DNA of 64,000 nt, taken from IMG/VR virus record IMGVR_UViG_3300035670_000099, positions 29,612-93,611 of that record. The stretch is one strand, 5' to 3'. This document shows, piece by piece, positions 3,824 through 60,649 of this stretch. Under the pieces are notes generated by a model. It did not search any database. It was given only the letters and a program-made list of their open reading frames with translations, and had not been told where the DNA came from. The first letter of the stretch is position 1. Each line of letters begins with the position of its first letter. This stretch comes from a virus. The translations under genes were made by a program, and so were the position numbers.

Positions 3824-3919
3824 TGATTTTGTCCTGTATTTTTAGAATTGTTTTGCAGTTTAACAATATTGCTTTTAAGTAAAAAAATAGAAGTAACTAA
3901 AACATTATAAAACATTTGG

Positions 3920-6244
3920 TTAATATCCTCCCCCAACGCCTTCGAACATGTAAGCAAAGGCAGCAGCCATATTTATGTAACTGCCTCCTGAAGGATTCCA
4001 AGTTACAATAACTGTCTCATCTATATTATTGGTATATGTCAATGTATCTGTTATTGCTTCGGTGGTTGCTGAAGGAAATTCATAATTAAACACTGCTGTT
4101 TGGTTGTTGCCGGCACCAATATCATTATCAACGCTTCCTTTTAACACTGTAACAGTCTGATTATTGGAGGATTTATCTACAACAATCGAAGGTGTTGCAT
4201 TGCTAAGGGGAAGAGTTACAGCATTAACTCTTACAGTATCTCCTATAGATATATTATTAAAAACTGCGCTATTTGCGGATAAACTAAAGTAACTAACTCC
4301 TGTTATGCCAGCATTATAAGCATTATCTGTTGTTATGTTTAAACCAGAAATAGATGATTGGTTTTTGATTGGCTTTAGATTGAATGTAATATCTAAATTG
4401 CTATTAGCAATGTTCCAAGCGTATGAAGTATTGCCTACCCTTCTTAGTTCATGATTAGTGCTAGTATCTTTCCATCCAGACAAAGTCACACCATTGACTA
4501 TTTGATCATATCTAGGCTGCTTTTTAAAACAAATCAAGACATTTTCCGTAAAAAACCACACCCAACTTGCTACTGATGTTTGCTCTATTCCTTTTAATGT
4601 TATTTTGCATTGTGTGCCACTGTTAATAAAGCTTAATTCGCCATTAACTAATTGCCTTCCAGCATAATTTGGATTATTTCCAAGCCCCAAAGGATTGGCT
4701 CCACCATTAAAAATAAATCCAAAATTAAGCATTCCAATAAATGTTGTGTAGTTAGGAGTTGCAGTATTATTAAAGCCTAGTTTTGTGTGATTCCAGCCAT
4801 ATAATTTTATTGCAGAAACTTGTGCTGTTGCTAATTCAGCATATTCTGGGACTAAAATATTTTCACCACCACTAGGATAAGTATAATACAATCCATGAGT
4901 TATATTTATATTGCTTGTTCTATTTGGATTAAACAATTCTCTAAATCCAGAAAAAGTAATACCAGTTGTGCCTAATCCAGTGAATTTACTAAAATAAAGA
5001 TATCTAAGTTTTCGCATTGCACTGATTTTAAATGCATAAAGACTAAGAGATAAATCAGAATATAATTCCTCAAGATTTACACATTTATGCAAATTATTTA
5101 CTATCGAATTAACATCAAAAGAACCTTCTATAATCAAAGATTTTAGATTCTGTAAAGGCAATGGTGCTATACCAATTCCTGGTGCAAATCTAGACTGAGT
5201 AGGACTAGCTGAGCTTCTTAATTGTAATTCTTCTAAATTGTTTAAGTTTGCTCTTAATGTTGTATTATCTGTTCTAAATCTAGTCAAACTAGTTTCTGTG
5301 CCTGTCATTTGACAGATAATTTTTAATCCTTTTATATCAGAAAAATTATTAAATTTTAGTTTAACAACAACAGGGATTTGAGCATTTATTGTCTTGTTAT
5401 TGGGTGTTGTTTTGTAATTATTATCGGATTGAGTAATAGCGGTAGTTGATTCATCCGGAAACTCCATTGTAAATGAGGCATTTTGTTGCAACTTAACATC
5501 AAGTCTTGTTAATGTGCTTGCTGCTATTGGGTTAGTTGTCTCATGAGGAGTATTGTAATAATTCTGAGAACTATTTGTTAATCCGTTACACAAAATCCAA
5601 ATTTCTTCATTATCCCAATCCGGAAGACTTGCATCAAATCCGCTACCATTTTCTAAGCCAACATTTACGATTGAATTTCCTGCATATCCGCATGCGCCTA
5701 CTACATATAAATGCGCATCTGTATAAGTTATTGTTCTTGTACTTAATTCAGTATCTCCTGTTTTGTAGGTTACTTGATTCCCTTCTATTGTGATAGACAA
5801 ATTATCTATTCCGTAAGTGCCAGACAATTGGCTTATAGTGTTTTCATGTACAATCCATAACGAGCCGTCGTCTGCCATGGGATTGCGGATAAAGCCATAG
5901 GCAACAGATCTAGCAATTGTATTGATATGTGTTGCGTATAAGGGAGGTATTCCAGCTGTAAATCCACAAATAGCACTTAATGGATTGCTGCTGTTGTTGC
6001 TAAAGCCAAACTCTAGTTTGCCGTTATACGGAGATTTAGTAAGACGTAAATTTAGCATCCTCCACTCAGCGGAACTGACAAAAGGATTATTATATCCACT
6101 TCTACTGCTATTTCCGTAAAACAATGTCCATATACTGCCGTCTTGTCCATAAACAGAATTATTCTGATCAGGAATTTGTGTGTGTCTATAAACAAATTGT
6201 CCGTTAACGTTTCCGCTAGTTCTAGTTAAGCTATTTGTAGCCAT
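3920..6244 (-). CDS. Putative tail fibre/receptor-binding protein, paralog B (774 aa)
   Basis: Same N-terminus (MATNSLTR) and long identical blocks shared with 1526-3823. Confidence 0.6.
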   Translation of the reverse strand: MATNSLTRTSGNVNGQFVYRHTQIPDQNNSVYGQDGSIWTLFYGNSSRSGYNNPFVSSAEWRMLNLRLTKSPYNGKLEFGFSNNSSNPLSAICGFTAGIPPLYATHINTIARSVAYGFIRNPMADDGSLWIVHENTISQLSGTYGIDNLSITIEGNQVTYKTGDTELSTRTITYTDAHLYVVGACGYAGNSIVNVGLENGSGFDASLPDWDNEEIWILCNGLTNSSQNYYNTPHETTNPIAASTLTRLDVKLQQNASFTMEFPDESTTAITQSDNNYKTTPNNKTINAQIPVVVKLKFNNFSDIKGLKIICQMTGTETSLTRFRTDNTTLRANLNNLEELQLRSSASPTQSRFAPGIGIAPLPLQNLKSLIIEGSFDVNSIVNNLHKCVNLEELYSDLSLSLYAFKISAMRKLRYLYFSKFTGLGTTGITFSGFRELFNPNRTSNINITHGLYYTYPSGGENILVPEYAELATAQVSAIKLYGWNHTKLGFNNTATPNYTTFIGMLNFGFIFNGGANPLGLGNNPNYAGRQLVNGELSFINSGTQCKITLKGIEQTSVASWVWFFTENVLICFKKQPRYDQIVNGVTLSGWKDTSTNHELRRVGNTSYAWNIANSNLDITFNLKPIKNQSSISGLNITTDNAYNAGITGVSYFSLSANSAVFNNISIGDTVRVNAVTLPLSNATPSIVVDKSSNNQTVTVLKGSVDNDIGAGNNQTAVFNYEFPSATTEAITDTLTYTNNIDETVIVTWNPSGGSYINMAAAFAYMFEGVGGGY

Positions 6245-27125: not shown

Positions 27126-27506
27126 TTATTTAACATCATAGACTAAAAAGTTAGAACTCCATTCCAAAATGGATAGCAACATCTTTTGAAAAAAAATTAT
27201 AAATAATGATTTGACTTTTACTACTGACTTAAAGATATTGATTTTAATGTTCCTGATTTCAAAAGTAACTGCATGAGATGCATCATCAACTGAAACCAAG
27301 ACAATTGACTTGATTTTAGATGGTTCAAATTTATCTGTCTGCATGTTATTAGAGCGTAAAAAAGCAATAAATCTAGGATAATGTTCAGTTATCAATATCC
27401 AGATATCGTCTTGACAAGATATAAATAAATCATATCCTTCTTCACTTTGAAAACCTGAGATTGAGCAGTATTCAAGTATTTCTTTGATAGGATTAAGATT
27501 ATTCAT
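27126..27506 (-). CDS. Hypothetical protein
   Basis: ORF track, ATGA coupling to the gpK-like gene. Confidence 0.55.
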   Translation of the reverse strand: MNNLNPIKEILEYCSISGFQSEEGYDLFISCQDDIWILITEHYPRFIAFLRSNNMQTDKFEPSKIKSIVLVSVDDASHAVTFEIRNIKINIFKSVVKVKSLFIIFFQKMLLSILEWSSNFLVYDVK

Positions 27507-28273
27507 TCAAAACTCCTGTGTCTGCATATATATCGTGTTGCATGTTTCCAGTAAGTGCCACCATAAACAAACAATTCGCTAGTTCTTTCACCTCCTAGAT
27601 TATGTAAACCAGTGTTATTGTCATCAATTATTATGCTTACATGGTGAGGCTGTATGTTATTTAAACTCATAACAATGACATCATTTTTTTGATGTAATTC
27701 TCCAAATTCTAACTTACGGAAATTAGCTTTTTGGAAATTCTCTTCTATCAAATTCCAAGAAGAAGATGTTGTTTCTTGCAAAGAAAACCCACGGGGAAAA
27801 TCAGGTAAAGATATATCTAACATTCCTTTATAATAAGCTCTAAGCAAGCTAAAGCAGTCAGTCCTATTGTAAACAAATGGCCACTTTAAATAATAGTTGA
27901 CTTCTTTGGGAGAACCGTCAATAAACAAAGGAAATGGATTAGCTAAATTTGCTGGATCAAACAAGTCCCAGGATTCAAAAGCAGAATGGTACAGAATATA
28001 TTTTATCTTACTGGATTTTGCATTACAAATATCTGGCGGGCTTAGATATTCGCTTTGTTCTGTCTTCCAGTGAGTGTGGTAAACACCTTGGATGTCATTG
28101 TATCCAACTATTAAATCTAGTTCGTCCGGTTCAATAACAAATGCTTCATGCTTGTTCTCAGCAGCATTTGTACATCTATACGGCACGTCTTCCACAATGA
28201 CACCGCAAACTTCTTGCTCTGGAAACTCCTTCGCGTGTTCAATTATATGCTCTTTTATATAAGCAGATATCAT
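27503..28273 (-). CDS. Tail tip assembly protein K-like (JAB plus NlpC/P60)
   Basis: EVCGVI...YHTH...LSPPD; TDCFSL...PHHVSI...LHN. Confidence 0.9.
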   Translation of the reverse strand: MISAYIKEHIIEHAKEFPEQEVCGVIVEDVPYRCTNAAENKHEAFVIEPDELDLIVGYNDIQGVYHTHWKTEQSEYLSPPDICNAKSSKIKYILYHSAFESWDLFDPANLANPFPLFIDGSPKEVNYYLKWPFVYNRTDCFSLLRAYYKGMLDISLPDFPRGFSLQETTSSSWNLIEENFQKANFRKLEFGELHQKNDVIVMSLNNIQPHHVSIIIDDNNTGLHNLGGERTSELFVYGGTYWKHATRYICRHRSFE

Positions 28274-45800: not shown

Positions 45801-48800
45801 AAAATAATAGATGCCATTTTAGATAAAAACTGTATTATTGTGTGAACAGCAGTTACTGTAAATATTCCTTTAAAAGCACCACCTAAAAAGCTAAATACTG
45901 GACTTATAGATTTAGCAAATTCTTTAAAAGTATTTAAAACAGGCTTTAAAGAAATACTTAAATATTCACTAATAAAACTAAAAGCATTTGTAATGATTTT
46001 AAGTGGATTTCGTCCACCAAAAAATTCATTTAATCCATTATGAAAAGCTGCACCTGAAGCTATTCCAATGATTTTAAATGTAGATGGAAAACTTGTTTGA
46101 AGAACTGCTATCACCCCTTTTAAAGAAGTAGACGCTGCTAAAGAAGCAGTGATTCCTGAAAAAATAGCAGGAGCGATTAATAAAGCAATTCCAGCAATTG
46201 CTATACTAAGTATAATAGCTGCGGAAGTGACTCCTTTTATAGCATTTGTAAGAATAGAGAAGCTGTCAGCAATATTAATAATTGCTTTAGGTATTATTCC
46301 AATCAATAATTCAAAAGAATCAATAATATGTAGTACTGCTTCAGTTCCAATGTTTTGCAGTTTTGTCAATGTTATTGCCAACCCACTTGCATTTTGCGCT
46401 GAGCCTTCGTATCTAGCTCTTAATATTTTGCCAACATTAGGTAATATATCAGCAGAAAGAATAGCACCTTGGCTTGTTAAATCAATTAACTCAGGAATTG
46501 TTTTGCCTATAGCCTGAGCAAAAATTTCCATCGCTGGAGGGAATTTTTCTCCTAATTGCTGTCTTAATTCTTCCATAGATAACTTACCTTTCGCCAATAT
46601 TTGAGTATAAGCAAGTAATATGTAAGTTACGTCTTTTCCTGTGATACCTAATGCATTTATGGATGAAGCAATTCCTTTATATAAATCTTGAATACCTTGC
46701 CCTTCTAGTTTTGTATTTTGCGCAGCTGCAAGTAATTGTCCATAAGCTTCTAATCCATCTGATATCGATACGTTGTATTGCTTAGATGCGTTAATTGCAA
46801 AATCAATTTCTTTTCCGCTTTTTGCTTCTCCTACAATAGAATTAATTTTTCTCAACGAAGGCTCTAATTTTATTATTTCTTCTCCAAGAGCAATTATTTT
46901 ATCAGTCAAGATAGACATAAAATCAGAAATATTGTAAAAAACATTAGTTAATGGGGAGAAAGTATCATCAATAGTATTTCCTAATTCTATTAAAGGAGAA
47001 ATTGCATTATGAAATTCTTCTCCAGCAATTTTAGCTAATCCATTAATTTCAGTAAGTTTGTTAATACCTTCAGATAATTTTTCTGGATCTGGTAAACTAG
47101 CTTCTTTTATGTCATCTACTATCTCTGAATGAACACTTGCATCAGGAGCTGAAATAGCTTGAAATTCTGTATAATCTTCAGTCGTTACTAAATTTATTTT
47201 AGTTTCTTCGCTTTCAATAGGATCTGTATACTGCTCTATTTCAACTTGTCCACCTTCTAATAAGATTTTAAAATTCCTAAGCTTTATTTCTTTTTCTTCT
47301 TCTGATAAATCAGGATGCTCAATAATTGCTTTAATTTCTTTTCTTATATTTTGCTGTGTATATTGACTAAATTCTGCTTTAATATCAAATTTTTGTTCTT
47401 TTTTAATTTTTTTATCTAATTCTTTTTCTAATTTATTTTTTTGATTTTTTAATTCTTCAATTTTCTTTTTCGCTTTATTTTCTTCTTTTGTTATTTCATT
47501 GTTCAATGCTTCACTTCTCGCTCTTAACGATTGAATCATTTCTGCACTAGCTTTTTGATCTGAGCCTTGTATAATATCTTTTTCGTAATCACTCAAATCT
47601 TTTAATTTTAATGCTGCTTCTTTTCTTTTGTCAATTAATTCTTCTTCTGTATTTTTAATTGCATTTACTTTATCTTGTATATTATCAAGTTCTTTTCCAT
47701 ATGTTTCACTTAATTTTGCAAATTTATCTATTCTTGATGCGTTTTGGTAATCTTTTTCTGCTTGCATTGCTTCTTTTTCTGCTTGTTTTATTTCTTCTTC
47801 TAATCTTGCAATTGATGCTTTATTCTCTTTTATTTGTTCTTCATATTTTTGCTTTTGCTCTTTGCCTATTTTACCTTTTTGTCTGTTTGTACGTTCATTT
47901 TGAAGACTTTTAAGTTCTGCCTGTGTTTGTTTAATCTCTTTGTCGTCGCGAGTTTTTTGTTCTTTTGTATATCCTCTACGACGTTCGTCAAAATCAAGGC
48001 GATTCATTTTTTCAACCAATTTATCTCTTTTTTCCTGTATTTCTTTTCTTTCTTCAATGTCTTCAGGTAATGTACGTCCAAACTCTTCTTCTAGTATTCG
48101 GTCTTCATCCTCAAGTTTCTTAATTTCATTATTAATAAATTCATCAAAATTTTTATTTTTTATTTTTTTATTTTCTTTTAATTCTCGAAGTTTGTTTATA
48201 AGATTTTCTATATTTTCGTCTAATTCTTTTTCTTCTTTTACTGTGAAATTTCTTTCGTTTTTTGCGTTTACTTTTTTTATTTCTTCTTCAATGTTATCAA
48301 GCTCTGCTTCTAAATTCTCTATTAATTTTATCTTTTCTTTAAGGTTTTCTATTTTAGCAGTGTCTGGATCAAAAGAAGATTCTTCAAATTCTAAAAGCTC
48401 TCTAAGCTCTGCTTTGTTTCCAGTACTTAATTCTAAATGAAGTTTTTTTTCTGTTTCTTTTCTTTCTTTCTCATATCCTTCGAGTTCTTTTTTATATCCT
48501 CTTCTTTCTTTGCTTGTTACATCTGTTTTTAAAAATTCTAATTGTTCATTTTTTCTTTTTAAATCTATTATTTTGTCTTCATTTTCTGCTTTTATAGATT
48601 CTTTTTCGTCTTTTTTTGATTCTTTTTTTCTTTCCAATGCTTCTGTATCATTAAATCTTATTTGATTTTGTTTTTTTAAAATTTCTTTATTAACTCTTTC
48701 ATTCATGCTATTAAGTTCTGCTTCTTTCTTTGCTATTTCTTTATCTAATCGTTCAAGTTCTTTTTTCTTGGATTCCTCCGCAGTAGTTTCATTTTTTTTA

Positions 48801-51800
48801 AGTGCCGTTATTTCTTTATCTAATCTCAATAATTCTTTTTTTGATTCTAATTCTTTTTGTTTTATCTGTTTATTTATTTTTTCAATTTTAGCAGTTTTAT
48901 CTTTTTCTGAAATAGATAATTGTTTTTGTTCTTCTAATTTTTGTATTTCTTTTTCAACTTCTAGTGATTTTTCCCTTATTTTTTGATTTATACTTTGAAT
49001 TCTTTCTTTTTTGTCTTCTTCATTTAATTTTTTATTTGCTGAAATTTCTCTTCTTTCTTTTTCTAAATCACTAATTGGTTGTCTTGCTATTTTTTTCTGA
49101 TTTTCAATTTCTCTATCTCTTTCTTTTTTTTTCACTTCACTAAAAACAGTAAGTCCTTCAATTCTTGCTTTTTCTTCATTAAGTTTTGATACTGCTTTTT
49201 CAGTTTCTTTTATTTTTTTATTTTTTGAAGCTTGTTTTTCTAAAACAGCAGATGATGTATCATGACTAATGCTTTCTACTCTAATTTTTTCTTCTCTTAA
49301 ACCTGTTAACTCTGATTCAAGTTCTCCTTGCTTTTCTAATCGCTTATCTTCTAATTTCTTTATTTCTTCTCTAATTTCTGCCACTTTTTCGCCTGTTTCT
49401 TTAGCTTTCTTTATAATAATAGAAGGATTAATAGTATTTAAAAAAGCTTTTCCAATAGCATGTGTAACAACCGCTAATTCTGCTACAACCGAATTAGAAT
49501 AAGAGTGAACAACATTATATCCTACATCTCTTAATTCTGTTGATGGAGAAGCTATACCAAATACTTTTTTAATAATTTTTAAAACGCCCTCAAATGCATT
49601 TTTAATAACTTGATTATCTATTGAAGCAATTTGGCTTTCAAAAGTATCTACAATATTTTTACCAATATTTTTGTATGAATCATCAATAACATAATCTATA
49701 GGATTTTGTATTAAATTTTGTTTAATTGCTTTTGGAGTCAATTGAACAGCTTCAGCAATACCAGTTCTTTCACTAGCTAGATTTCTTTTTCCATCCTTAC
49801 CAACTTTTGGGTTGACAGGCGCTGTAGTAACTTGTAGTAAATAATTTGTTCTAGCTCCTGCATCATGAATTCCTGATTTTTCTAATTCTTTAAAATTAAC
49901 TAATTTATCTTTATACATTTTTGCTAATAAATTGTTAAATTCCTTTCTTGAGTATAAAGACATTTTCTCCCTAAGTTCTTTAATGTCTACTAACAATTCA
50001 TCATTGTCTTTATATTTTTTTATTAATGTTTTAAAATAAAAATCAAAATCAGATTGAAATTGTTTATATAATTTATCTAATTCTTCTTGAGAATATATTT
50101 TTTCAAATCTTTTAAGATTTGAAGTAATAGCTGGAATCCAGCTATCTTTACCGTCAAACAAAGCTGTGCCTTTTCCAGCAACAACTATTTCTGGAAGTGG
50201 TTTCATATGAATTGGTTTATGTCCTTCTGATCTTTTTATTTTTGCTGAAAGTTGAAGAAGTATTTTCATCAAACCAATCGAGTTATGATCTTGCTGGCTA
50301 GTTATTACAGAATTACGAGGAGCGTAACCTTTTTTAGCAAAATTAGGATGATTATGTGCCACAGAATAAAATATTTTGTCATTAGATTTTCTTGCAGCTT
50401 CATAAATTTTTAAAAAAAGTTTGTCACTATCAAATTGAACGTACTTTTCACTCCGTTCTTTAGCAATATTAAATTCTTCTATAATTTGTCCTCTAGAATT
50501 CATAATAATACCTATTACATCTTCTAATTTTTCATTTCTAATGTCATCTATTTTTTTACTATTGTAAGGATTTTGTATTTTATCTAAATTTTGTCTAGGA
50601 TTTATAAAATTTAATTTTCCAGCTTTAGAATAATCATCTAATTCTCTTTTCTGATTTTCATCTGTTAATAATTCTTCTCTTAAATGTTTATAAATTTCAA
50701 TATAATCTTCTAACTTTCTAAATTCTCCTAATTCAGGCTTTGCAATATTTAAATCAAATAAATGATCTGGTATATCTTTAATTTCTCCAAATTGTCTAAA
50801 TAAACCCTGAATAATGTTATCAATAATAAGCCGTCCGGCTTTAAATCCATTTTTAATCGAGTCAAAAAATGTTTTTGTAATATTTACTGCTACTTCTATT
50901 ATTTTTTTAGCTGGAGAAGCTATACCAAATACATCTTTAATACCTTGTAAAACTTTCTTAAATTCATCTTTAATAGATTCATCGTCTAATAAAGCAATTT
51001 GGCTTTCAAAAGTATCTACAATATTTTTACCAACATTTTTGTATGAATCATCAATTCCTTCAATAGCAGAAGCTTTAGATTGATTAATTTGCCTACTTTG
51101 CTGCGGAGTTGAAGAGTAAGCAGTCTTATAAGATTCTGATGTAGATTCAAGTTTGTTTTTGACATCAAGTACATTATCTTTTATGTATTTAGATAAAGTT
51201 TTTAGCAATGCAAAAACTTCTGCATCAATATTTAATGATTGAATTTTAGGTAAAATTTCTTTTATTTGTTGTATAAAAGTATCATTTACTTCTTTGTATA
51301 AATTAGTAATTTTTATAAAGTCATCTTGTAAAAACTGTTGATTAGGCGTGCTAGGTATATCAGCATCTTGCATTGATGCGACATTTGCTGTATTTTTAAT
51401 ATAATTATAAATAAAATCTAATCCTTGAGAAGATATTGCTTTATTAGCATCAGAGACATTATTTATTAATTCTTGTTTAAATGTGTCTATAAAACTAGTA
51501 TCAATTTTTTTACCACTATTAGCAATTTTATTAGTAATTGTTTTTTCAATTGCATTTAGCGCTTTATTAATGGATTCATTAATAGTAGCAGGATCAACGC
51601 CTCCTGTTTTTTGTATTGATTCAATGATTTCTTGTTGAATTTTTGTTAACTTTTCTTTATATTTAGTAGCAAGATTTTCAGGTTTTGTCGGATTAATTGA
51701 TTTAGCAATATTTTTAAGATTTAAAGATTGGTTTAATATATCATCTAATCTAGTAGAAGAATTAGTAGTTGGTAGCTTTGATGCAATTTTATTAATTGAA

Positions 51801-58629: not shown

Positions 58630-60033
58630 TTAAAATTGAAAATAAGGTTTTTTTTCTAATAAACTATTTTGAGCTTTAGCTAGCTCTATACCAAGATAAG
58701 CAGCATGACTTGCCAACATAGAAGGATTATTGACTAAAATCTTGCTGCAAATTAAATTGCAAGATATGCCAGAGTATTTAGCTATTTCTTCTCCATCCTT
58801 AGTCACGTGAGTTACTAAAATCCTATTGCTATCAACTTCGATAACAAAATTTCCAACAGGATCGTCAAAAACTTTTTGATTAGCAATCCGCTGGTAATAA
58901 GAACAAATAACATCATCAGCAGCAACCCAAGAGTTTTCATATATATGTGCGCTTTCACTAATAATCGTTAAAGAGCCTATTTTAATGTCTGGGTAAAAAT
59001 TTTTAATTTGACTAAAAATATAATACTGCAATCGCCTTAGCCCCATGGCATTAGATACCCAAGCAGAAAACATGTCATTACTTCTAAAAAGTGCTGTTAA
59101 GTAAAATTGATTATTATATATTTTTATCCAAATATGATTTAAGCATGGTGGAGATTGAGAAAAAATATCAGTATTAGCATCCCAAAGATTAATTACTAAT
59201 CTGTTAGAGATTTGACTTGTTTTAAGCATGTTAATAACATTTTCAATCTGATTAACACCAAAATACTCATTAATCCTAGTTCCATAGCTGTTGCTGTTAT
59301 CAGCAATGCATAATATTTGCTGCACATATTTGTTTATAAACTCTCTGCTTGTCGGTAAATAATTTGGTTCTGGGAATATTAATTCTTCTGGTTCTTCTGT
59401 AATAATAACAGTAAAATTTAATAATTCTTGCCACAAAATATTGCTTGAACTAATGTCAATTTTACCAAGACTTCTAATTCTATGCAATATTTTTACCCAA
59501 GCTTCATGAATAAATTTTGATTGTATTCTATGTCCATTTAATTCTCCGGAAACAGTCGAGACAATTGGTTTGTTTTCTGGAAAAATCATTGGAGAAGCCC
59601 ATAAATTACAACTTTTACCGCTAAATGATTTAACAGCTTTTACTAAAGAAAAAATATCTTCAAATTTGTATGATTGAACAGAAAATCGTAAGCAATCAAG
59701 AGCATTTTTTGGTATTTCAATATCAATATAAGCTGCATGTTTAGATTCTACTATCCAAGCATTTCTGCCGCCACTAGTCTTTCCTAGCCTTACTCCATTA
59801 GCAAAAAAATCCAATAAGCAATCTATAGAGCCTGAATTTAAATCATATTTACTAGCTTTTAACAAAAATAAATATCTAATATTTGTATTAGCTAATAAAT
59901 TACGTATTAACAAATTAATTCCAGGAGTGCATGAATATAATTCTTTTAATACAAAATAATTATTTGCTTCTAAATGTTTAGAGACATTAGAAGCAATTGT
60001 CCATCCTGTTGCTATAGCAATATGATTACTCAT
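58630..60033 (-). CDS. thyA: Thymidylate synthase fusion (MtrA-like N-domain, ThyA core, DUF4346-like C-domain)
   Basis: SYGTRI, PPCL, FRSND, SAHIYE; C-term DPVGNFVI...HAAYLGIELAKA; N-term GINLLIRNLLAN.NIRYL; ATG 60033 preferred. Confidence 0.85.
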   Translation of the reverse strand: MSNHIAIATGWTIASNVSKHLEANNYFVLKELYSCTPGINLLIRNLLANTNIRYLFLLKASKYDLNSGSIDCLLDFFANGVRLGKTSGGRNAWIVESKHAAYIDIEIPKNALDCLRFSVQSYKFEDIFSLVKAVKSFSGKSCNLWASPMIFPENKPIVSTVSGELNGHRIQSKFIHEAWVKILHRIRSLGKIDISSSNILWQELLNFTVIITEEPEELIFPEPNYLPTSREFINKYVQQILCIADNSNSYGTRINEYFGVNQIENVINMLKTSQISNRLVINLWDANTDIFSQSPPCLNHIWIKIYNNQFYLTALFRSNDMFSAWVSNAMGLRRLQYYIFSQIKNFYPDIKIGSLTIISESAHIYENSWVAADDVICSYYQRIANQKVFDDPVGNFVIEVDSNRILVTHVTKDGEEIAKYSGISCNLICSKILVNNPSMLASHAAYLGIELAKAQNSLLEKKPYFQF

Positions 60034-60649
60034 AAGAAACATTATGCAATGGCATGTAGCATCGTGCTTGATTATCTGGTAAATAAGATGGGCATCTCCA
60101 ACCCCAATCCTTGACTTTATAATCACACAAAAATATTCGGCTGTCTTTTTGCAAATAAATACAAGGAACAGGACGACTAAGTTTGTCATTTTTCCATAAA
60201 TGATAATCGTCGATTAGCTCTTCTACTAACCAGCTTTTAATACCAGAATAAAACATAGTTTTATATTTTCCTAAAAAATGAATATATTCTAGCAATTCTT
60301 CTAATTTTTGCAAATCTGCTCGACAATACCAAGTAATTTGAGATGTTACTCTCCATGGTTTTATAGTACCATTGCCAAGATTATGATTTTTCTGTAAAAA
60401 ATAATACGGACTACTAGTTTTATAATACCAACTTGTCTTATCATTAGATAAATACCCAATTTCTAATGGAATATTCTCTTTTATGATTATTAGCCCAGCT
60501 TTAATTTGTTCCATATCAGGGTTTTGTTTAAGCATTTTAGCATTAAACAAAATTTGATGAGACAAAATTGCGTCAAAGCTAGGATTCCAATCATTACTTA
60601 ATGCGACAGGATTGGATAAAAAGGCAACTATTTTAATGTTAGAAATCAT
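60026..60649 (-). CDS. Orphan type IV CRISPR Csf3 (Cas5-group RAMP)-like protein
   Basis: KIVAFLSNPV...PSFDAIL...PL...WYYKTSSP...ITWYCRAD...LL..IHFLGK...W.VEE...L.RPVP...GWRCPSY..N...C.MP follows the Csf3 pattern as recalled. Confidence 0.65.
   Translation of the reverse strand: MISNIKIVAFLSNPVALSNDWNPSFDAILSHQILFNAKMLKQNPDMEQIKAGLIIIKENIPLEIGYLSNDKTSWYYKTSSPYYFLQKNHNLGNGTIKPWRVTSQITWYCRADLQKLEELLEYIHFLGKYKTMFYSGIKSWLVEELIDDYHLWKNDKLSRPVPCIYLQKDSRIFLCDYKVKDWGWRCPSYLPDNQARCYMPLHNVSYE

Follow-up and report, generated by a model that had tools for sequence, protein, structure and literature searches.

The stretch of viral DNA analysed here (64,000 nucleotides (nt), called the window in the following) is part of the IMG/VR virus record IMGVR_UViG_3300035670_000099, which comprises 93.6 kb and is estimated to be about 90% complete. 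It carries P0001, a gene for a giant tape measure protein (TMP) of 6,235 amino acids (aa). In the middle of this protein a segment of 409 aa (aa 2559-2967), named the cassette here, lies in frame between two copies of a 47-aa module. Within the cassette, aa ~2686-2815 very probably form a genuine, though very divergent, RadC-clade JAB/MPN+ domain with a complete catalytic set. The features of the locus are summarized in Table 1.

That the host protein is a TMP had been assumed in a first-pass annotation made from the sequence, and was confirmed. Pfam TMP_3 was found at aa ~3896-4084 with 62.6 bits (cut-off 41), and the C-terminal half was matched by eight PHROG TMP families, phrog_2335 with an E-value of 6e-33 and seven more. 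Thus, judged by these profiles, the open reading frame (ORF) is that of a phage tail TMP. Pfam and PHROG scans over all 6,235 aa gave only TMP elements, plus the one JAB domain known via its orthologue on a sister contig. A non-canonical N-terminal extension of about 2,500 aa precedes the JAB domain and the canonical TMP core (aa ~3900-6235) follows it. The G+C content of the TMP gene is 26%, compared with 32.5% for the window. The frame is open on the sister contig as well, and a stop codon or frameshift was found in neither contig.

For the cassette the first-pass annotation had proposed a JAB domain with an E...HxH...SxxD metal site. This was supported mainly by the orthologue on the sister contig, named L003, while the window copy itself was matched by no profile library. 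L003 is also an IMG/VR contig; it is collinear with the window, its DNA is 95-99% identical and it carries both repeats and the cassette. Overall the two TMPs are 93% identical, the two JAB domains 66%, the cassette being a hot spot of divergence and the JAB core its most divergent part. The HNHP motif seen earlier at 50345-50356 was confirmed as aa 2744-2747. In L003 the metal loop reads AHNHPNKAVGASQGD and has exactly the canonical JAMM spacing HxH-x7-S-xx-D as given in PMC300881. In the window 16 residues instead of 7 lie between HxH and S, the cause being the insertion FAKKGYAPR; the first-pass annotation was right in calling this spacing longer than canonical. All five residues of the catalytic motif (E2688, H2744, H2746, S2763, D2766) are kept in both alleles.

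With the L003 domain as query, RadC was the top match in Pfam (E 5.7e-4, 20.2 bits, curated cut-off 22.1) and in NCBIfam (E 3.9e-4, 20.1 bits, equivalog cut-off 180), and the top match in PHROGs was annotated 'DNA repair protein' (E 0.023). A home-made RadC alignment comprised 34 sequences, or 36 with both alleles added. Comparison of the two alleles with the 34 RadC sequences by hhalign gave a probability of 84% and an E-value of 7.4e-6 over 107 columns, with the Glu, HNHP and S..D in register, as was the last strand, LDHIVVG. The hidden Markov model (HMM) of RadC scored the L003 domain with 11.8 bits, which was reached by 0 of 2,000 shuffles. In the MAFFT alignment of all 36 sequences H2744, N2745, S2763 and D2766 stand in invariant columns, and E2688, H2746 and P2747 in nearly invariant ones. 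Among the ESM-feature neighbours of the L003 domain, RadC-named clusters appeared at 0.86, which is regarded as a lead only.

Structure prediction, proposed earlier as a check on the cassette, also gave a JAB fold. AlphaFold 2 with the RadC-rich alignment (34 RadC sequences and the two alleles) yielded a model with a predicted local distance difference test (pLDDT) value of 81.9 and a predicted template modelling score of 0.77, in which the nine-residue insertion lies in a loop. The nearest solved structure was RadC 2qlc_A (Z 11.9, root-mean-square deviation 2.7 A, 113/126 residues, VIA-align). The structural matches after it were all JAMM/MPN proteins, namely JAMM1, BubCD (Z 10.5) and Rpn11; with a bacterial Ubl-deubiquitinase a Z of 8.3 was obtained.

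Several results weigh against this assignment. The window copy was recognized by none of Pfam (E up to 10), PHROGs and NCBIfam, and the RadC HMM gave it 1.2 bits, a score reached by 91 of 2,000 shuffles. For the sister allele, all Pfam and NCBIfam matches remained below the curated cut-offs. The alignment behind the confident model consists mostly of RadC sequences, and the model therefore speaks for consistency and is not an independent proof; AlphaFold on the single sequence of the 409-aa insert was uninformative (pLDDT 36). The window allele may moreover be impaired, to judge from its nine extra residues in the zinc loop and from a Glu in place of an invariant His: its last strand reads LPEIVVAG, compared with LPHIVVAG in L003, where the RadC-invariant His is kept. 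The RadC signature is partial, with HNHPN instead of HNHPSG and (T/A)S instead of PS. Hence the domain, for which the Pfam threshold was not reached and whose window allele is without the canonical spacing, should best be termed 'RadC-like' and not a bona fide family member.

Further searches gave little. With the insert as query phmmer found 0 matches in 1.84 billion representative proteins, and searches of the PDB sequences with the insert or a two-allele profile gave chance-level matches only (the YPT6 GTPase at E ~1e-3), none of them to a JAB protein. Neither allele was matched by Prok-JAB (PF14464) in the Pfam scans. The ESM Atlas returned mostly unnamed phage clusters for the window domain and one 13% Prok-JAB cluster at 0.89, again a lead only. 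A tblastn search of INPHARED with the L003 JAB domain gave three non-significant matches (E 5), one on a lambda-type 'tail tip assembly protein K' and two unannotated; these were not used as evidence.

Table 1. Features of the tape measure gene, its cassette and neighbouring genes, in window coordinates
Feature	Position	Strand	Remarks
Giant TMP gene, P0001, 6,235 aa	39878..58585	minus	one uninterrupted ORF
Repeat copy 1, aa 2512-2558, DDSYKNVGKNIVDTFESQIALLDDESIKDEFKKVLQGIKDVFGIASP	50912..51052	minus	duplicated GIHSPS-type TMP module; PHROG TMP profiles match
N-terminal part of the cassette, aa 2559-2685	50531..50911	minus	TMP-module helix continued (AKKIIEVAVNITKTF...), then linker; no family match
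Divergent RadC-clade JAB (MPN+) domain (very probable), aa 2686-2815	50141..50530	minus	orthologue matches, hhalign, model
E2688, predicted catalytic glutamate (KLE-D-V)	50522..50524	minus	aligned with the nearly invariant RadC Glu (MAFFT, hhalign); kept in L003
H2744-N-H2746-P, predicted HxH zinc ligands, RadC-type HNHP signature	50345..50356	minus	block nucleotide-identical in L003
Nine-residue insertion FAKKGYAPR, aa 2749-2757, zinc-binding loop	50315..50341	minus	missing from the sister allele
S2763-Q-Q-D2766, SxxD of the JAMM motif	50288..50299	minus	invariant columns; SQGD in L003
C-terminal helical part of the cassette, aa 2816-2967	49685..50140	minus	weak winged-helix-like matches at aa ~2873-2919
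Winged-helix-like matches, aa ~2873-2919	49829-49969	minus	POLR3C_WHD 20.5 bits (cut-off 30), ScpB E 0.12; both below cut-off, lead only
Repeat copy 2, aa 2968-3014 (...VFGIASP, then STELRDVGYN)	49544..49684	minus	phrog_58, phrog_4372; best fit to the generic module
519-aa protein directly upstream of the TMP	58630-60189	minus	thymidylate synthase segment and C-terminal PterinBD-DUF4346
Lambda gpK-like tail gene	27503-28273	minus	Prok-JAB 18.8 bits (cut-off 25), then NlpC/P60 22.5 bits (cut-off 23)

For the N-terminal part of the cassette helices were predicted at low confidence by a single-sequence model. The winged-helix-like stretch just downstream of the JAB domain is possibly a nucleic-acid-binding appendage.

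The 47-aa module that brackets the cassette (DDSYKNxGKNIVDTFESQIA...VFGIASP) was found in two in-frame copies, and the whole 93.6-kb record holds no third one. The first-pass annotation had described these repeats as near-identical in DNA and 1368 bp apart. The spacing is correct (exactly 1,368 nt or 456 codons); the near-identity was somewhat overstated, the copies being 82% identical over 177 nt (122/141 in the core). Identity is uneven: the first 66 nt agree at 63 positions and the last 24 nt at 22, and the middle has diverged. The upstream edge of the repeat is sharp and the downstream edge decays gradually. Other repeats within the same 4 kb are weaker (<=55 nt, 66-73% identity).

The PHROG TMP profiles phrog_4372 and phrog_58 match the module. 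A tblastn search of a phage collection with it gave 16 weak matches, all 16 of them within annotated TMPs of unrelated phages. In the TMP of Streptomyces phage phiScoe3 (1,465 aa) the corresponding stretch, ...MIKIADSMVKAIKKALGIHSPSRVMAALG with LGIHSPSRV, lies at aa ~1313-1361, about 100 residues from the C-terminus. These three lines identify the flanks as a generic TMP "GIHSPS" module that has been duplicated. An insertion scar was also considered for the repeat and was ruled out by the same observations. A word-based search for shorter proteins with the module found none. Between the two copies, traces of gene conversion were detected: copy 2 of L003 agrees in 130-132 of 141 nt with copy 1 of either phage, compared with 121 of 141 with copy 2 of the window. 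By this pattern, the two module copies exchange sequence by gene conversion. In one metagenome run (X10) a contig skips 102 nt within copy 2 (49573-49676), which hints at a further natural variant of the module.

Downstream of the GIHSPS-type module a Lys/Glu coiled coil of about 800 aa is followed by the complete canonical TMP core (aa 3896-6235). Since the module normally lies near the C-terminus of a TMP and here stands mid-protein, the 6,235-aa protein may consist of two TMP-like units joined head to tail.

The cassette had been taken in the first-pass annotation for an exchangeable cargo slot. Searches of IMG/VR, JGI metagenome contigs, GTDB genomes and the 1.84 billion proteins found no relative in which the site is empty or holds a different cargo; the only relative fetched was L003, with the same cassette. 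A tblastn search of INPHARED with 700 aa around the cassette remained without match. When contigs of four metagenome runs were aligned to 48800-51800, no 1,368-nt deletion joint between the repeats was seen, though such contigs drop rare variants. The long skips listed in these contigs have 21-nt sides of low likeness and are probably spurious. The composition of the cassette is also that of the gene. An exchangeable slot is thus a possibility, of which these searches gave no example. The related suggestion that the repeats permit recombination held in part, as the copies undergo gene conversion and the joined-repeat deletion form was not found in the contigs of the four runs.

With a G+C content of 26.2% and 11% G+C at third codon positions, the cassette does not differ from the rest of the TMP gene and, judged by these values, is old enough to share the composition of the gene. 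Its evolution was examined by comparing two sequences, the window and L003, in a simple Nei-Gojobori count. The ratio of non-synonymous to synonymous changes per site (pN/pS) was 2.0 for the cassette (aa 2559-2967; 122.6 non-synonymous and 14.4 synonymous changes, Fisher p 0.004) and likewise 2.0 for the JAB domain alone (aa 2686-2815; 64.1 and 7.9, p 0.047). For the upstream extension (aa 540-2511) it was 0.33 and significantly below 1 (85.0 and 64.0, p 1.3e-10). No other part of the TMP evolves as fast in this comparison as the cassette. Synonymous divergence is equal in the cassette and the upstream part (~0.06). Because it equals that of the upstream flank, the variable patch was not imported from a distant lineage; such a recent import was rejected on this ground and on that of the composition.

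The changes in the cassette affect mostly the first and second codon positions (75/52/30) and are concentrated in the hairpin that precedes helix 1 and in the S/D-bearing loop and its helix. No nucleotide differs between the window and L003 in the strands or in the HNHP, GHKPIH and IVVAGK blocks. This pattern is suggestive of diversifying selection. A diversity-generating retroelement behind the variable patch was rejected, as the spectrum is not adenine-specific and an indel is present. Two further hot spots with pN/pS >1 were noticed in the TMP, at aa 2070-2140 and at aa 5230-5450, the latter being the region of the FNFLSYL... and TPANTASAIPVSNTAIT repeats. Divergence between the window and L003 is also mosaic along the gene, with synonymous values of ~0.055 in aa 540-2511 vs 0.001-0.004 in aa 3100-5230. 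This suggests, from the two sequences compared, that the part at aa 3100-5230 was recently exchanged.

DNA near-identical to 48800-51800 was found in contigs from 20 public runs of 12 studies, mostly from freshwater or lakes and some from subsurface, soil and marine samples. Four runs were mapped on the region and all four contained the cassette. The loop allele of the L003 type, recognized as a joint 50237>50342, was present in runs X6 and X10 beside window-type contigs. Hence both zinc-loop alleles coexist in lake metagenomes. The Logan contigs are heavily fragmented over the cassette, as expected of a microdiverse region.

Regarding the remaining tail genes, the window encodes lambda-like J (central fibre), I (assembly protein) and K. 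The gpK-like gene brings a second JAB domain, of another clade (Prok-JAB), into the tail module of this phage; the genome gave no other Prok-JAB match. Immediately upstream of the TMP gene lies the gene for the 519-aa protein of Table 1, which is not a tail chaperone; a chaperone pair of the G/GT type was not evident adjoining the TMP gene.

As to function, we favour an injected, host-directed, metal-dependent hydrolase acting at the start of infection, with a probability of roughly 45%. As part of the TMP, the JAB domain would be packaged in the virion and would leave the tail together with the TMP at infection, reaching the host envelope or cytoplasm; this delivery is expected because TMPs leave the tail at infection. 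It would then act as a zinc hydrolase on a host component early in infection. By family expectation the substrate would be a nucleic acid or nucleotide, with an (iso)peptide bond as the alternative. It was argued for RadC that it has no ubiquitin-tail groove and that a nucleic-acid- or nucleotide-processing enzyme is more likely (Iyer et al. 2017, PMC5512222). The excess of amino-acid change around a fixed core and the two zinc-loop alleles are both compatible with an arms race against a target or inhibitor in the host. An anti-defence role of the TMP-borne domain, as raised in the first-pass annotation, is a conjecture. The more elaborate scenario of an injected counter-defence or takeover enzyme in an arms race, with positive selection diversifying the surroundings of the active site, two or more zinc-loop alleles maintained in lake populations and the GIHSPS module as a joint for gain, conversion and loss of TMP cargo, we hold to be unlikely. 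Some points speak against the injected hydrolase. A substrate has been demonstrated for no enzyme of the RadC family (PMC5512222), the tail lumen may lack room for three TMP copies that each carry a folded domain, and the signal of selection comes from two sequences.

Three other explanations have to be weighed against the injected hydrolase. The JAB domain could act in cis as a maturation peptidase, cutting the giant TMP or a partner tail protein at assembly or after ejection, and could dock or cleave at the flanking modules; from the 6,235-aa precursor a working tape measure and released pieces would arise. Proteolytic processing is known for TMPs such as lambda gpH and T5 pb2. The position of the domain between the N-terminal extension and the canonical TMP core would suit such a role, as would the gene conversion that keeps the flanking modules alike, and the gpK-like JAB and NlpC/P60 gene of the phage itself is a precedent for JAB chemistry in tail assembly. 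Furthermore, the JAB/MPN+ enzymes of known chemistry are peptidases or isopeptidases (PMC300881; PMC5512222), and embedded peptidases were proposed to process large multidomain virion-borne proteins (PMC5512222). However, the RadC clade is argued to lack a peptide-tail groove (PMC5512222), the flanking module is generic and occurs in many TMPs without a JAB match, and a housekeeping enzyme for self-processing is expected to be conserved, whereas a pN/pS of ~2 was found. Taken together, both the cutting in cis and the release of pieces from a precursor seem rather unlikely to us.

A high rate of amino-acid change is also produced by relaxed constraint, and many MPN domains are non-catalytic scaffolds. 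At least in the window, the JAB domain might be dead or decaying, either kept as a structural spacer or protein-binding module or drifting to loss; in its allele the nine-residue insertion separates HxH from SxxD, the RadC-invariant His before the last strand is gone, and no profile recognizes it. Such decay is nevertheless improbable, as the five catalytic residues are kept in both alleles, in nucleotide-identical blocks amid dense change, pN/pS is significantly above 1 and not just near it, and both contigs are free of stops and frameshifts. Still less can be said for a mere chance likeness of E...HNHP...SQQD in low-complexity, AT-rich coding sequence, by which the segment would be TMP filler between duplicated modules. 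The missing profile matches of the window copy, the zero homologues in 1.84 billion proteins, the failed single-sequence fold and the sub-threshold matches of the sister allele would agree with it. Three independent libraries, however, gave the same top family for the orthologue, whose spacing is exactly the canonical x7 and whose score was reached by none of the 2,000 shuffles, and hhalign placed all motifs in register over 107 columns (E 7.4e-6). We regard a chance likeness as very improbable.

Comparison with known systems places the domain nearest to the RadC-like JAB family (PF04002; E. coli YicR, the prophage proteins YkfG/YfjY/YeeS, and 2qlc), with which it shares E...HNHP...SxxD, the order of secondary structures and, as the last strand, (L)(D/P)HIVV(A)G. 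It differs from this family in being only ~17-25% identical, in scoring below the curated cut-offs and in lying mid-protein in a virion protein of 6,235 aa, whereas RadC stands alone or follows a helix-hairpin-helix domain. Relatives of the cassette domain outside this phage lineage were not found in the searches made. With the JAB deconjugases of CBASS Cap3 and the Bil/Bub systems (9ea4, 8tyx) it has the fold and the metal motif in common (BubCD Z 10.5, close behind the 11.9 of RadC), but RadC ranks first for it by sequence and by structure, a Prok-JAB match was not obtained, and no ubiquitin-like, E1 or E2 partner is linked to it, although linkage was not examined genome-wide. The link to Cap3/Bil-type deconjugases drawn in the first-pass annotation found no support in the sequence: all sequence-level matches are to RadC, which is argued to be without a ubiquitin-tail groove (PMC5512222). 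By its matches, the sequence family is RadC and not Prok-JAB/Cap3-like; the fold alone leaves ubiquitin-like substrates possible. The tail tip protein of the lambda gpK type is similar as a case of JAB in a siphovirus tail protein. In contrast to the cassette domain, the JAB of gpK belongs to the Prok-JAB clade and is fused to NlpC/P60 in a small protein of its own, which serves in tip assembly and is not part of a TMP.

The TMPs of mycobacteriophages, T5 pb2 and the TMPs of staphylococcal phages carry peptidoglycan hydrolase or peptidase domains or motifs, which act on the cell wall. The protein described here resembles them in having an in-frame enzyme domain inside a TMP, which would hence be packaged in the tail and released at infection. 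While their domains act on the cell wall, the one found here is of the JAB/RadC type and lies mid-protein between duplicated TMP modules. Polyvalent proteins are also very large, delivered together with DNA and equipped with conflict-type enzyme domains (Iyer et al. 2017, PMC5512222). RadC is catalogued among their domains, though the 2017 survey has it solely in polyvalent proteins from conjugative elements (PMC5512222). In the present case a single enzyme domain was detected, compared with 2-15 in polyvalent proteins, and it is carried by a TMP; the protein thus falls outside this group. In the searchable literature no report of a RadC or JAB domain in tape measure proteins was found. The RadC-type JAB domain in a TMP, as predicted here, appears to be new, while enzyme domains in TMPs and RadC in polyvalent proteins were already known.

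Although bacteria, prophages and conjugative elements very commonly carry RadC-like JAB domains, no substrate of these has been demonstrated (PMC5512222). The domain described here is fixed in a protein that is ejected into the host, and this placement argues for an action at the moment of entry. The pattern of its evolution, with a fixed core, fast surroundings and two coexisting alleles, fits a host-facing enzyme. For the tape measure proteins, the finding would extend the enzyme types they carry beyond cell-wall hydrolases and would point to the conserved GIHSPS module as a site of expansion within a TMP. If the domain is indeed an injected enzyme of an arms race, it would give the RadC family a first functional context and a clue to its natural substrate.

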